NCBI GenBank assembly: GCA_963788655.1
Contig: CAWBHS010000027.1
Coordinates: forward strand, 41,645-105,644
Origin: an uncultured Verrucomicrobiae bacterium
Lineage (GTDB): Bacteria; Verrucomicrobiota; Verrucomicrobiia; Limisphaerales; JAFGQR01
DNA length: 64,000 nt
Direction: 5' to 3'
The notes under the pieces: model-generated
Seen by the model: the letters and a program-made list of their open reading frames with translations, nothing else
Told to the model about the DNA's origin: nothing
Databases searched by the model: none
In this document: positions 1,338 to 6,129 of the stretch, piece by piece
Numbering within the stretch: position 1 is the first letter of the stretch
Layout: each line of letters opens with the position of its first letter
Program-made: the position numbers and the translations under genes

Positions 1338-1850
1338 ATGAACGAAGAAATCTTTGATGTCGTCAATGAACGCGACGAAGTGATCGGCCAGCAAACCCGC
1401 CGCGAAGTGCATCGCTTGGGCCTCAAGCATCGGGCGGTTCATATTTTGGTGTTTAACCGCAACGGCGACCTCTTTCTGCAAAAGCGTTCGATGCAGAAAG
1501 ACAATCATCCCGGTGTTTGGGATTCGTCCGCCTCCGGCCATGTGGACGCGGGAGAAGACTATGACGCCGCCGCAATTCGGGAATTGCGGGAGGAGCTGGG
1601 AGTGCAGGTGCCGGCCCCACTCGAACGGTTATTCAAAATTGATTCCTGCGAGGCGACCGGCCGCGAATTTGTTTGGGTTTACCGCTGGGCCGCGGAAGGT
1701 CCGTTGGTGCTCCACCCCGAGGAAATCGAGCGGGGCGAATGGTTCAGTCCGAACAACGTCAGCCATTGGCTGGCCGAGCGGCCCCAGGATTTTGCCCCGG
1801 CATTTCCAGTAATTTGGAAGCGGCTACAAGCCAGGCTGGCAAGCCCTTGA
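1338..1850 (+). CDS. NUDIX hydrolase (YfcD/IDI-like)
   Basis: HRAVHILVFN...LQKRS and Nudix box GHVDAGEDYDAAAIRELREELG. Confidence 0.92.
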   Translation: MNEEIFDVVNERDEVIGQQTRREVHRLGLKHRAVHILVFNRNGDLFLQKRSMQKDNHPGVWDSSASGHVDAGEDYDAAAIRELREELGVQVPAPLERLFKIDSCEATGREFVWVYRWAAEGPLVLHPEEIERGEWFSPNNVSHWLAERPQDFAPAFPVIWKRLQARLASP

Positions 1851-1885: not shown

Positions 1886-2485
1886 TTATGACCGTTCACG
1901 AAAATCAAGCTGATTCACCAAGGCGCCGTAACCGCGCTTCTGCAGTCGCCGAAGCGATTCTTTGAAAGCGGTAATTTCCGCGAGTTGAATTTTAAGCCAC
2001 TTCTCGTCCGCCTCATCGAACGTATCGAGTTTCAGGATATCCTCGTAATAACGTTTCGCGGACATGATCGGGCGGGCGAGATCAATGATCGTCAGCTCGC
2101 TTCCGGAATCTGAGGTGGAGTAGTTGATTCCGTAGTAGCGCTTGTGCTGCGGCAAGAACAGGAAACCCTTGCGCTTGCCTTTGAATTCGCTTTCACACCG
2201 TTTGAACGCTTCGACACTCAGACGCCCGGGGATAATAATCTGAACCAGTGTTTTCTCTGATTGAAACTGGCCCGCGGATTTGAATTGCGGCGGGTCGCAG
2301 CCTTCCACCGCGGAGTAGAGCTCAAATTGCTCCCGGTCGATGGCGGAGGAGACGGGGTCCAGGAAATTGTAAAAGTAGCCGACCGCGAGGCCCACTCCCA
2401 CGACGTCCGTGTCCTGTTTATTAAGGCCATCAAAAAACTTTTCGACGGCCTTGATGCCGATTGCTGTCGCGATTTGTTCCCACAT
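1886..2485 (-). CDS. Stand-alone prokaryotic STING-domain protein (~199 aa)
   Basis: GLAVGYFYNFLDPV, VQIIIPGRL, KRYYGINY, LTIIDL and EITAFKESL follow the order of the conserved bacterial STING blocks. The likely start MWEQ at 2485 leaves only ~27 aa before the STING helix. Confidence 0.82.
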   Translation of the reverse strand: MWEQIATAIGIKAVEKFFDGLNKQDTDVVGVGLAVGYFYNFLDPVSSAIDREQFELYSAVEGCDPPQFKSAGQFQSEKTLVQIIIPGRLSVEAFKRCESEFKGKRKGFLFLPQHKRYYGINYSTSDSGSELTIIDLARPIMSAKRYYEDILKLDTFDEADEKWLKIQLAEITAFKESLRRLQKRGYGALVNQLDFRERS

Positions 2486-2795
2486 AGCTAGGTTGTCAAT
2501 TATTCTCCGGTTGTCTGAATTAATGCCCGGCACCGACCGGGACGCCTGCTCCGGATCGTCCCCCCACTCGGCGGGTCACCGGCGCAACCACGGGCTTGAA
2601 CATCCACCATCGAAACGGGAACTGCCAATCCAAAAGTGCCGTCCGGGCTGAATGCCGGCTGACGGCACGAGTCCACCGAAGCGGGTGCCTTCCAAGACAA
2701 ACCTTGACCGACAAGGGCTGAAGTGAAATGAATTTCCTCTCGCTAAAAACAGTCTTTAGCTGACACAACGAATAACATTAGATGCATGCTTTGAT

Positions 2796-3647
2796 ATGAA
2801 ACAAAAACTCATTTCCCACCTCACCCGTTCGCTGCTTGGTCTGATTGCCGGGGCATTGGCCCTGCCAGCCGTGGCGGCGGAACCCAAGAAACTCCTGCTG
2901 GTGACCACCACCACCGGATTCCGACACAGCTCGATTCCCACGGCGGAAAAGGTCATCCAGCAACTCGCAGCGGAAGACGGATCGTTCACCGTGGACTTGG
3001 TGCAACAACCAAAGGGCAACAGCAGAGATCCCGAGTTCCAGGACAAGATGAAGCAGGCGCTCAGCAAACTCAGCCCGGACAATCTCGCCAAATACGATGG
3101 GGTGATTTTCGCCAACACCACCGGGGATTTGCCGCTGCCCGATCCCGATGGATTTGTGAAATGGATCGAATCCGGCAAGGCCTTCATCGGCATGCACAGC
3201 GCCAGCGACACGTTCCATAACTTCCGGCCGTACATCGAAATGTTGGGCGGAGAATTCAAAGGCCACGGGGCCCAGGCCACAGTCGATTGCATCAACGAAG
3301 ATCAACAATGCGCCTGCTGTCGGCATCTCGGTTCTTCCTGGACCGTGCATGATGAGATTTACCTGATTAAAAGCTTCGAGCGCTCCAACGTCCACATGCT
3401 GCTGGGCCTGGACAAGGAACCCAACAAAAAGACGCCCGGATACTTCCCCGTTTCCTGGTGCAAGAACGCGGGCAAAGGCCGGGTGTTCTATACCTCGCTG
3501 GGCCATCGCGAAGACGTGTGGGATGACAAATATCCGAACCGGCAGAATTCGCCCGAAGTGGCCAAAGCGTATCAGCAGCACATCTTGAACGGTATCAAAT
3601 GGGCCTTGGGCCTCGTGCCGGGAAGTGCGACCCCGCAAGCGAAGTAA
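2796..3647 (+). CDS. Secreted ThuA-domain (class I glutamine amidotransferase-like) protein
   Basis: Signal peptide; TTTGFRHSSI, FANTTGDLP, FIGMHSASDT, GKGRVFYTSLGHRE. Confidence 0.9.
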   Translation: MKQKLISHLTRSLLGLIAGALALPAVAAEPKKLLLVTTTTGFRHSSIPTAEKVIQQLAAEDGSFTVDLVQQPKGNSRDPEFQDKMKQALSKLSPDNLAKYDGVIFANTTGDLPLPDPDGFVKWIESGKAFIGMHSASDTFHNFRPYIEMLGGEFKGHGAQATVDCINEDQQCACCRHLGSSWTVHDEIYLIKSFERSNVHMLLGLDKEPNKKTPGYFPVSWCKNAGKGRVFYTSLGHREDVWDDKYPNRQNSPEVAKAYQQHILNGIKWALGLVPGSATPQAK

Positions 3648-3704
3648 CTGGAGGCGATGAATCGTGAACATCGTTTGACATTCAAACTGATAGCGAACCT
3701 GACC

Positions 3705-4325
3705 ATGAAAAAGATCACTCTGTTACTCACCGGATTATTGCTGTGTGGCGCGGCGGCAGTTTGGGCCGCGAACGAACCGGGATTTGTGCCGCTGTTTAAT
3801 GGCAAAGACCTGACCGGTTGGAAACTGCGTAATCCCAACGGACACAATTCCTGGACCGTCGAACCGGGTGGGGTTCTCCAGAACACCGTCCACAAGGGCG
3901 AGCACGGCACCGACCTGGTGACGGAGAAGAAATTCTGGAACTTCACCGTCCGTTACGAATTCAAAGTACCCGATGGCTCGAACAGCGGTTTCTATCTGCG
4001 TGGCCGTCATGAAATCCAAATCCTCGGCGATTACCGGAGCGGCAAGGCCGGCACGGGTGGCAACGGCGCCATTTATGCCTTCAAGGCGCCCGATGTCTTT
4101 GCCTCGAAGCCGGGAGACCAATGGCAAACCGTCGAGGCAACCATGATCGGCAACAAAATCACGGTGACTTTGAACGGCAAAAAGATTCACGACAATGTGG
4201 TGTGCGATCGAGCAACCGGGTCGGAGATCGACCGCAACGTCACGGAGCCGGGGCCAATCTTCCTCCAGGGCGACCATGGCACCGTCGCCTTCCGTAACAT
4301 GCGCATCAAAGTCCTATCGCCTTAG
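3705..4325 (+). CDS. Secreted DUF1080 (3-keto-disaccharide hydrolase-like) protein
   Basis: Signal peptide; LFNGKDLTGW, NSGFYLRG, EIQI, GPIFLQGDHGTVAFRNMRIK. Confidence 0.92.
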   Translation: MKKITLLLTGLLLCGAAAVWAANEPGFVPLFNGKDLTGWKLRNPNGHNSWTVEPGGVLQNTVHKGEHGTDLVTEKKFWNFTVRYEFKVPDGSNSGFYLRGRHEIQILGDYRSGKAGTGGNGAIYAFKAPDVFASKPGDQWQTVEATMIGNKITVTLNGKKIHDNVVCDRATGSEIDRNVTEPGPIFLQGDHGTVAFRNMRIKVLSP

Positions 4326-4334
4326 GCCGCCGGC

Positions 4335-4388
4335 AGGTGAATGTTCCACCGGAGCGGGACTTTCACCCTCCGGTGGGCATTCTTCACC
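4335..4388. terminator. Long hairpin between convergent DUF1080 and ribF genes
   Basis: GGTGAA..CCACCGGAG-loop-CTCCGGTGG..TTCACC inverted repeat. Confidence 0.5.
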
Positions 4389-4489
4389 ACCGCACCAACG
4401 CCGCCATTCTTGTCGGCCGGGACGTTGATGCGCCCGGCGACCTTACCAGAATGTCGGCGCTTCGTCTTTAATCGTCGCAAGCGCGCCCG

Positions 4490-5416
4490 CTACCCAAATC
4501 GTTGCCGCGCCGATTCAATGTCGCGGGCAATTTGGACTTTCAACGCATCCAATGAAGCGAACTTCTGTTCGTCGCGTAACTTGTCCACGAAGGTCAGTTC
4601 CAGTTCCTGCCCGTAAAGGTCACCTGGAAATCGAGCAAATGGGCTTCGACCCGCAATTGGGGCTCGGGGTGCGCAAGGGTAGGCCGGTACCCGACGTTGA
4701 GCACCGCCCGGTAGGTGCGGCCGGCAGCGCTGGCATGCACGGCATAAACTCCGTTGGGCGGCAAGGCGAGCCCTGTGGTAGCGAGATTGGCCGTGGGGAA
4801 TCCCAGTTGACGCCCAACCTGATCGCCTTGGACCACCCGTCCGGCCAGCGAATACGCCCGCCCCAACATCTGACTGGCGGCATCCAATTGCCCCAGCCGA
4901 ATCGCCTCGCGAATCCGGGTGCTGCGAATGGCCTGGCCTTCAAGCGACACGGCCGACAGACTATGGACTTGGAAGTGAAACTCTTGGCCAAACTGCTTCA
5001 GCAACGCCACGTTGCCGCTGCGTTTGTGGCCGAAATGAAAATCGCTGCCCACGCACACGCTTTGTAGTCGCCCGAGATCACCCACCAAAGCCACGCACAA
5101 ACTCCTCGCCGGATTGGCGGCTGAGTTCTGGGGTAAAGGCGAGCAGCAAGGTGGCGTCTACTTCCAGCGAAGCGATGGCCCGCAGCTTTTGGGGGAGGGA
5201 ATAAATCAGGCGCGGCACGCGCGCGGGGGCGACTACTGCATTAGGATGGCGGTCGAACGTGACCACCACGCTGAGGCCCTCGTGCTGTTTGGCGTCAGCC
5301 ATCGTGGTGCGGATGATTTGCTGGTGACCCAAATGCACGCCATCGAAGAAGCCGATGGCCAGGCACACCCGTCGTCCGTGGGGCCGCAGTTCGGTGGCCG
5401 CATGAACGGTTCTCAT
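4490..5416 (-). CDS. ribF: Bifunctional riboflavin kinase/FAD synthetase (two apparent frameshifts)
   Basis: IGFFDGVHLGHQ in 5078-5416; VGSDFHFG, GRQLGFPTANL, NVGYRPT and VEAHLLDF in 4594-5100; C-terminus DLYGQELELTFVDKLRDEQKFASLDALKVQIARD in a third frame, stop at 4490. Confidence 0.93.
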
Positions 5417-5417
5417 G

Positions 5418-6129
5418 TCAGCCGACCAGTTGCAAAAACGGCACCACCCGTTTTTCGAATTCGTCCGGGTTCAGTCGGATCAATTGCTCCAATTCAATGG
5501 CGTCCTTGATTTCGAAGCGTCCGGAGGCCAGCCGGCGCAAGTGGGCCAGGTGCGCGCCGCAGCCAACTTTCTGGCCCAGTTCGTGAGCCAGACTGCGGAC
5601 GTAGGTGCCCTTGGTGCAAGCGATACGGAACCACCCCAGCGGTTCGACGTAATCGGTGAACGCAAATTTGTAGATATGAATGAGCCGGGCCTTCCGCTCC
5701 ACTTCGAGTCCGCGGCGCGCCAGTTTGTAGAGGGGCACCCCATCTTTCTTCACCGCCGAAACCATGGGGGGCGTTTGCATTTGGTCGCCCACGAACGCGG
5801 CTGCCATTTCGTTGAGTTGGTTCACGGTCAACGGGGGCACCGGTTGGGTGGCAATGACTTCGCCTTCGACGTCGTAGCTGTTGGTGGTCACCCCGAACCG
5901 GATGGCGCCGGCATACACTTTGTCATCCGCCATCAGTTTCTCGGAGAGCCGGGTGGCCCGCCCCATCACGATGATCAACAAGCCGGTGGCATTGGGATCC
6001 AACGTGCCGCAATGGCCGGCTTTGCGCACGCCAAACCGGCTGCGCACGATGTCCACTACGTCGTGGGACGTGGGACCGAGCCGGCTTGTCGATGAGCAAG
6101 GCGCCATCCAGCGGATCGAAAACTTCCAT
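5418..6129 (-). CDS. truB: tRNA pseudouridine-55 synthase (frameshift near the 5' end)
   Basis: LDGALLIDKP then, after a frameshift, TSHDVV...KAGHCGTLDPNATG, QTPPMVSAVK, CTKGTYVRSLA. Confidence 0.94.

Follow-up and report, generated by a model that had tools for sequence, protein, structure and literature searches.

The window analyzed here, a 64,000-nucleotide stretch of contig CAWBHS010000027.1 from an uncultured Verrucomicrobiae bacterium (assembly GCA_963788655.1), encodes a short STING protein that consists of a cyclic dinucleotide (CDN) receptor domain, an N-terminal helix, and a C-terminal tail. Work on bacterial STINGs has dealt with proteins in which a TIR or transmembrane (TM) domain is joined to the STING domain and whose genes lie beside that of a CD-NTase making c-di-GMP. 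The protein described here has neither fusion partner and no recognizable cyclase nearby, while its fold is that of a STING, its pocket residues are conserved, and its relatives form a distinct clade under purifying selection. We propose that it is a minimal STING effector of the CBASS type (CBASS being antiphage signaling based on cyclic oligonucleotides), intact and selected but now solitary, a reading whose chances we judge to be about even. The evidence is of a computational kind throughout, most of it drawn from metagenome-assembled genomes.

Results

Fold, predicted dimer, and absence of other domains

An earlier note, made from the letters of this DNA alone, had recognized a STING receptor from a series of motif blocks, and every one of these blocks is present in the 199-residue translation. 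The Pfam model prok_STING (PF20300) matches residues 31-178 with an E-value of 7.3e-11, scores 42.7 bits where the curated cut-off is 27.1, and is covered from position 3 to position 136 of its 137, leaving about 29 residues ahead of the domain. A PF20300 scan of the organism's whole genome returned the same single match. A profile built from 30 family members matched the solved bacterial STINGs 8hwi (2.4e-6), 7ebl (4.7e-6), and 8hwj (1.3e-4) and, more weakly, 9lmq (6.9e-4), 8hy9 (9.8e-4), and 6wt5 (1.4e-3). When an AlphaFold2 monomer model (mean predicted local distance difference test score, pLDDT, 86.1; predicted template-modeling score 0.81) was compared with the Protein Data Bank using Foldseek, the top matches were all bacterial STINGs (E 3e-7 to 3e-4, probability 1.00), followed by animal STINGs, and the target-normalized template-modeling scores were 0.68-0.76 for bacterial chains that contain the STING domain only. 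The Pfam match, the profile matches to solved STINGs, and the model with its structural matches agree that the fold is a true STING fold. A search of the ESM Atlas returned only unnamed clusters and rows at chance level.

Prediction of two copies with c-di-GMP included gave a homodimer score of 0.81, while none of three controls scored above 0.00; at least 96% of contacts agreed between runs, and the partner pLDDT was at least 81. In calibration, the mark was reached by 20 of 30 proteins solved as one-chain pairs and by 1 of 23 solved as single chains, counts that are only a rough guide to this run, which used its own alignment and a small molecule. The lowest-error contacts across the copies (32-32, 33-32, and 29-32) describe a predicted homodimer built on helix 1.

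That the protein has no effector domain, as stated earlier, and no TM segment was borne out by Pfam, by the NCBIfam Cap12 model, by a search for fused forms, and by hydropathy. No TIR match to Pfam was found in the protein, in which only 29 residues precede the STING domain; the Cap12 model scored 17.7 bits against a cut-off of 450, and the PADLOC TIR-STING effector model matched only through its C-terminal STING half. The PF21654 profile had no match anywhere, control genomes included, and is uninformative.

Ligand pocket

Six positions that are invariant in the 30-member alignment, namely Y37, N40, and F41 of helix 1, R116 and Y118 of the lid, and D135, align with pocket residues of 7ebl, 8hwi, and 8hwj. 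According to PMC10739871, an R-x-Y/F lid is the marker of the c-di-GMP class, the base is held in a stack of Arg, Tyr, guanine, and Phe, a conserved Asp reads guanine N2, and one solved bacterial STING binds c-di-AMP. With residue roles assigned from that source, the window protein has the helix-1 aromatic (F41), the R-x-Y lid (R116 and Y118), and the Asp (D135). Judged by these residues, the pocket is of the conserved c-di-GMP type.

N-terminal helix and C-terminal tail

AlphaFold2 places a helix at residues 2-19, followed by a disordered linker and by helix 1 from residue 30. The earlier note had called the N-terminus amphipathic and had considered an effector that acts through such a helix. 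The hydrophobic moment of helix 2-19 is 0.27, a value reached or exceeded by 597 of 2000 shuffled sequences. The helix is not measurably amphipathic and is used in the dimer model as a clasp between subunits, and the idea of an amphipathic effector helix is weakened. None of 82 family N-termini reaches a Kyte-Doolittle mean of 1.6 over 19 residues (maximum 1.51); one protein, P0068, was excluded from the count because it lacks the motif that locates helix 1. Four relatives (P0090, P0099, P0104, and P0114) carry a moderately hydrophobic, TM-like segment (Kyte-Doolittle 1.5-1.7) and a linker ahead of the same helix, which suggests that the helix is not itself a membrane anchor.

Among the dimer-model contacts of lowest expected error are those that join residues 9-17 of one copy to residues 169-177 and 28-31 of its partner; the positions contacted include the invariant A173 and F174. 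Within the helix, F18 is invariant in the alignment, and G10, K12, A13, V14, and F17 are majority residues. The prediction would make the N-terminal helix an inter-subunit clasp packed on the last helix of the partner. Conservation also extends to the other end of the protein, where Y186, G187, L189, V190, N191, L193, and F195 are near-invariant among the 30 aligned members.

A distinct family of short STINGs under selection

Of 206 candidates from a word-indexed search, 84 proteins passed E <= 0.001 (43-100% identity, nearly all 192-213 residues long). All 84 carry PF20300 and share a common start and end with the window protein, and some are already called "STING domain-containing protein" by automatic annotation. 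The 30-member alignment contains 28 invariant columns, the pocket residues among them. No fused or longer form was found at 432-2000 residues in a search for longer proteins. An exhaustive search of representatives without a length limit, the only one to cover the 349-432 residue range, gave 80 matches, all of at most 264 residues except for two long proteins with short, weak, chance-like stretches only.

The ratio of nonsynonymous to synonymous substitution rates (dN/dS, Nei-Gojobori) between solitary copies was 0.10 for L030/L002, 0.13 for the window and L031, and 0.14 for L003/L004. These are the three informative pairs: synonymous divergence was saturated in four others, and L004 and L033 are nearly identical. 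The short STING is under purifying selection.

More remote relatives, at 26-33% identity, each have one clear N-terminal TM segment (Kyte-Doolittle means 1.9-2.6). Seventy-nine sequences were assembled for a tree and 12 dropped for want of the anchoring motif. The 67 STING domains kept fall on two sides of a branch with 95/96 support. On one side are 20 rows, of which 19 have a TM segment and 1 is truncated; on the other are 47 rows, of which 41 are short, 5 are longer and lack a clear TM segment, and 1 has a TM segment. Being without a known root, the tree does not order the short and TM states in time. Short STINGs are a distinct clade, lying across a well-supported split from the single-TM STINGs.

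Three metagenome loci contain two STING genes each (L057:898-1455 and 1574-2161; L068:2620-3309 and 4090-4524; L071:4374-4754 and 4950-5453), with no cyclase among their scanned open reading frames (ORFs).

Linkage to CBASS and search for a cyclase

Relatives are encoded at 18 loci of the genome-contig collection, and the 134 ORFs within 4.5 kb of them were scanned against Pfam. A SMODS (cyclase) domain lies beside the STING gene at two loci, L011 and L017. In the PADLOC annotation, L017 reads short STING, cyclase (5.3e-81), and E2 (1.2e-50), and L011 reads short STING followed by a cyclase (3.1e-64); at both, the effector position is taken by the short STING, with no further CBASS effector annotated. 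The L011 protein (P0065) belongs to the core family, and that of L017 to a separate subgroup on the short-STING side of the tree. Because two members stand in the effector position of CBASS operons, the family appears to be, at root, a CBASS effector type. The STING role outside canonical CBASS that the earlier note had envisaged is unproven, since these two loci hold a short STING in the effector's place.

A further gene at L017 (2613-3551, plus strand), directly upstream of the STING-cyclase-E2 genes and on the same strand, encodes a DUF1016_N and SNase nuclease, the PADLOC candidate PDC-S02. It could be an independent defense gene or part of the three-gene system.

Whole-genome scans detected SMODS in 4 of the 18 homologue-carrying genomes and not in the other 14. 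Unlinked cyclases in two of the four (G005 and G006) each adjoin a 2TM effector of their own. Both are self-contained systems of cyclase and 2TM effector (L020 on G005:C2 and L021 on G006:C302), with a solitary short STING elsewhere in the genome; the G006 cyclase matches PDLC00769, the same PADLOC model as the cyclase beside the short STING of L011.

Metagenomes supplied 44 further loci, 40 after removal of four duplicates of genome loci, and no SMODS match was found among the 146 ORFs of at least 120 residues from 35 of them. When the ORFs lying up to 4 kb from STING at the 18 genome loci and in the window were all compared with one another, no shared neighbor emerged. The neighborhood analysis called for in the earlier note shows mostly solitary genes, without a common partner at these 19 loci.

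The genome of the window is a bin of 8.96 Mb in 115 contigs, 86.4% complete and 5.6% contaminated. The whole-genome CD-NTase search, likewise suggested earlier, found none in it: SMODS had no match, the cyclase proteins of L017 and L011 used as queries had none, and neither did the PADLOC cyclase models PDLC00769 and PDLC00780, the latter a weak negative, as it was also blank in control genomes.

Upstream of the short STING, at a distance of 32-323 nt, 15 of the 40 metagenome loci encode a conserved protein that is about 150 residues long and has no Pfam match (for example, in alignment A3, L045:254-742 on the minus strand, L052:4451-4900 on the minus strand, L056:4190-4678 on the plus strand, and L057:102-587 on the plus strand). 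Its N-terminus, viewed by eye, resembles a signal peptide or lipobox. The gene is divergent from STING at some loci and co-directional at others, and wider gene contexts vary; several of the 15 are near-identical contigs, so that independent cases number fewer than 15. The protein was not found in the window's genome or in the 18 homologue-carrying genomes. A 171-residue ORF overlapping the STING start in L052 was rejected as the antisense shadow of a real divergent gene.

Distribution and possible sources of ligand

The short-STING family was found in none of 40 relatives of the organism (1 of the same genus and 39 of the same order). Any prok_STING protein occurs in 5 of 401 genomes sampled evenly across the phylum, the window's own genome counted (G310 of this sample is the same genome as G005). 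The other four are 98-99% complete; three lack a SMODS match, and all four lack a GGDEF match. Between them they encode one TIR-STING, two TM-STINGs, and one short STING. Homologues from different phyla share 45-89% identity. An origin from phages or plasmids was considered and dropped, as IMG/VR, GenBank phages, and PLSDB gave no match.

The TIR-STING (L080:5227-6159, plus strand) is a complete 311-residue protein with CAP12-PCTIR_TIR and prok_STING domains, encoded among kdsA, lptC, and lptB-like genes of G160, a 99% complete genome of the same class in which neither SMODS nor GGDEF was found. A Cap12-type NADase effector that stands alone in this way is no less of a puzzle than the short form. 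The TM-STINGs, of 209 residues (L078:2338-2964, minus strand, genome G223) and at most 332 residues (L079:5413-6408, plus strand, genome G139; start uncertain), both have a hydrophobic N-terminal segment; these genomes are also of the same class, 99% complete, and without a SMODS or GGDEF match. L019, a TM-type relative, is likewise solitary.

GGDEF domains were detected in 4 of the 18 homologue-carrying genomes, not in the other 14, and in 2 of 20 relatives. DAC, the c-di-AMP synthase domain, is present in 13 of 19 genomes searched, the window's among them.

The gene and its surroundings

The short-STING ORF starts with an ATG at 2485 (MWEQIATAIG) and comprises 199 codons and a stop at 1886-1888. 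An in-frame GTG at 2533 would add 16 residues; the ATG is preferred because homologues begin at the methionine of the MWE motif. Loss of an upstream domain through an assembly error was rejected on comparative grounds, as the homologues have a common start. In a check of public sequencing runs, three small-share DNA holders from one study had contigs spanning 1659-1919 and 2249-2399, not the 5′ end, and no RNA holder of the gene was found; the check has no bearing on expression or start. The coordinates are collected in Table 1.

Table 1. Features of the short-STING gene, its product, and the adjoining DNA (window coordinates)
Feature	Position	Strand	Basis or remark
Short-STING gene, complete	1886-2485	-	ORF and translation; Pfam PF20300; 84 same-length homologues
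N-terminal helix, residues 2-19	2429-2482	-	AlphaFold2 helix, pLDDT ~65; not TM
Low-confidence linker, residues 20-29	2399-2428	-	pLDDT < 50 at residues 20-25; length varies in alignment
STING cyclic-dinucleotide-binding domain, residues 30-186	1928-2398	-	Helix 1 through last long helix; Pfam, profile, Foldseek
Lid motif R116-Y117-Y118, RxY class	2132-2140	-	R116 and Y118 invariant in 30; aligned to R-x-Y of 7ebl
Conserved C-terminal tail, residues 187-199	1889-1927	-	Beyond Pfam domain; predicted strand 193-198, pLDDT ~89
NUDIX gene	1338-1850	+	Convergent with STING gene
ThuA gene	2796-3647	+	Divergent from STING gene
Divergent intergenic region STING/ThuA	2486-2795	.	310 bp; presumed promoter region

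The solitary position between the NUDIX and ThuA genes that the earlier note had described was confirmed. Since rsmA-like, ribF, truB, nrnA-like, rbfA, and infB reading frames also lie around it, the surroundings are of a housekeeping kind. A PADLOC scan of 61 window ORFs (E <= 1e-6) gave three matches, to STING, to a generic methyltransferase, and weakly to NUDIX; the absence from the window of CD-NTase, Cap2/3, and TIR genes stands, as no cyclase, E1/E2/JAB, or TIR model matched any of these ORFs. The NUDIX gene was rejected as a partner of STING, given that no other scanned locus has one and that its match to PDC-S07 is weak. The STING gene has a GC content of 50-55% and the DNA nearby one of 56-63%, too mild a difference to decide anything, and the flanks of the gene map to four different contigs of the same-genus genome, which leaves the comparison of synteny uninformative.

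A consensus promoter scan of 2486-2795 found no site on the STING strand, and a promoter and terminator scan around the gene turned up nothing useful. The ThuA-family gene is in tandem with a 3-keto-disaccharide hydrolase gene (together 2796-4325, plus strand); both products have signal-peptide-like N-termini, and the pair resembles ordinary sugar metabolism.

Discussion

Proposed mechanism and points against it

If the short STING is a minimal CBASS-type effector, it would form the usual STING homodimer, with each N-terminal helix clasping the last helix of the other subunit, and would bind a 3′3′ CDN of the c-di-GMP class through F41, R116-x-Y118, and D135. The lid would then close and the dimers would stack into oligomers, as in other bacterial STINGs, for which ligand-driven filament formation is described as a strictly conserved activation step (PMC9402430). 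The assembly itself would be the growth-arresting output, perhaps with release of the clasp helices. Since the gene is solitary in this genome, the activating signal would come from an unlinked cyclase, either on DNA missing from the bin or brought by an invading element.

Several points weigh against this proposal. The protein has no recognizable output device, and the candidate output helix is, by the prediction, hidden inside the dimer; the homodimer score, for its part, may partly reflect memory of solved STING dimers. The family is tied to CBASS in only 2 of 18 genomic loci, at one of which, L017, the effector may in truth be the upstream PDC-S02 nuclease. Of the 40 metagenome loci, only 12 extend for 1.5 kb or more on both sides of the STING gene. 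Mobile elements are often lost from bins, and a cyclase could lie in the missing DNA of this 86%-complete, 5.6%-contaminated one. Finally, the bin (G000) contains two strong GGDEF matches, on contig C90 (13761-14234 and 92330-92806). Their products may supply endogenous c-di-GMP, and constant exposure to c-di-GMP would argue against a lethal effector. In tetranucleotide distance to the mean of the genome, C90, which is 197 kb long, takes rank 92 of 93, and it has the extreme value on the first principal component. Because it is such an outlier, it may not be part of the organism; the bin, at 8.96 Mb, is larger than the same-genus genome (5.3 Mb), and part of it may be foreign.

Alternative roles

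The same GGDEF genes enter into the alternative that survives best, in which the protein has a non-lethal housekeeping role, as receptor or buffer for a CDN made by the host, and modulates a cellular process by way of protein contacts of its helix and tail. As the CDN, c-di-AMP from the host DAC cyclase would be one candidate and c-di-GMP from the two GGDEF proteins the other. The wide occurrence of DAC, the c-di-AMP-binding STING of PMC10739871, the location among housekeeping genes instead of in a defense island, and conservation of helix and tail beyond the needs of a simple membrane anchor are all in keeping with such a role. The distribution is not: the family is absent from all 40 relatives, STINGs of any kind are rare in the phylum sample, and the cross-phylum identities look like those of an accessory, transferred gene. 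Moreover, two members reside in CBASS operons, the RxY and Asp pocket is of the type tied to c-di-GMP, most host genomes gave no GGDEF match, and the two GGDEF genes of the bin are on its compositional outlier. We regard a housekeeping receptor as unlikely.

Less probable again, and in our estimation distinctly doubtful, is a CDN sink, a dimer that only sequesters signals of the c-di-GMP class and so sets the threshold for another system or blunts the CBASS-like signaling of a competitor or mobile element. An intact pocket without an output domain would suit a sponge, and G005 and G006 carry separate cyclase and 2TM-effector systems whose signal a short STING could buffer. Known CDN sponges live in viruses, phages, and plasmids, whereas no relative of the short STING was found among IMG/VR viral contigs, GenBank phages, or plasmids. 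In 14 of 18 host genomes no cyclase to buffer was found, and at L011 and L017 the protein sits where the effector belongs, with no other annotated.

It is very improbable that the gene has no function and is what a decayed CBASS operon left behind, its frame open by chance: the genome gave no cyclase, and one truncated copy exists (L066, matching residues 131-198 only), but the low dN/dS between solitary copies, the invariant columns that include the pocket, and the 84 intact homologues of the same short architecture speak against the truncated relic that the earlier note had allowed for.

Relation to known STINGs and sponges

The nearest sequence relatives found are the TM-STINGs, with which the short form shares a small size (~200-260 residues), a module N-terminal to helix 1, and the pocket motifs. 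It differs from them in lacking a TM segment, in lying across the well-supported branch of the tree, and in being mostly solitary. The name Cap13 we take to denote the TM-STING CBASS effectors of Flavobacteriaceae and Capnocytophaga. With the TIR-STINGs (Cap12) of Sphingobacterium faecium, Larkinella, Epilithonimonas, and Riemerella, the short form has in common the STING fold and dimer, the RxY lid, the guanine-reading Asp, and the helix-1 aromatic; unlike them, it has no TIR domain and no adjacent cyclase. [quoted passage not shown] In the literature searched, bacterial STINGs that are solitary or lack an effector domain were nowhere found described; as subscription journals lay mostly outside it, this is weak evidence that they have gone unreported.

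With a c-di-GMP-type pocket, as far as its residues tell, and no CD-NTase found in its genome, the protein resembles the STINGs that stand alone in choanoflagellates and in other unicellular eukaryotes. According to two sources (a 2025 preprint, bioRxiv 10.1101/2025.09.04.674280; PMC10732462), these keep c-di-GMP binding of the bacterial type, occur where no cGAS-like enzyme is detectable in the genome, and are proposed to sense foreign CDNs. Unlike those proteins, which have four N-terminal TM helices, the short form is bacterial, predicted to be soluble, and without a known downstream pathway. It would also be comparable, as a small protein of CDN-binding type without an enzymatic domain, to the phage sponges Acb2, Tad1, and Tad2, as presented in PMC10680739, yet their folds are unrelated and no family member was found in phage or viral collections.

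Significance

The short STING raises two testable questions, namely how a STING acts without an output module and what it senses when the genome has neither a CD-NTase nor credible c-di-GMP synthesis. In a clade without an output module, either the STING domain acts by assembling or it signals to something not yet known. The L011 and L017 loci are ready-made two- and three-gene systems in which the mechanism can be tested. Most members are solitary and most hosts have no recognizable source of c-di-GMP, which brings the question of STING sensing without a cyclase into bacteria, where simple genetics can be applied, and is relevant to the way in which eukaryotes could have gained STING but not its cyclase. 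A broader and tentative proposal, which we think unlikely as it stands, is that bacteria lacking both a CD-NTase and c-di-GMP signaling keep solitary short, TM-, and TIR-STINGs as stand-alone sensors of the c-di-GMP-class signals of invaders. Such proteins would be a prokaryotic counterpart, and possibly a forerunner, of the cyclase-independent STINGs of unicellular eukaryotes, and in the short form oligomerization alone would be the defensive output.

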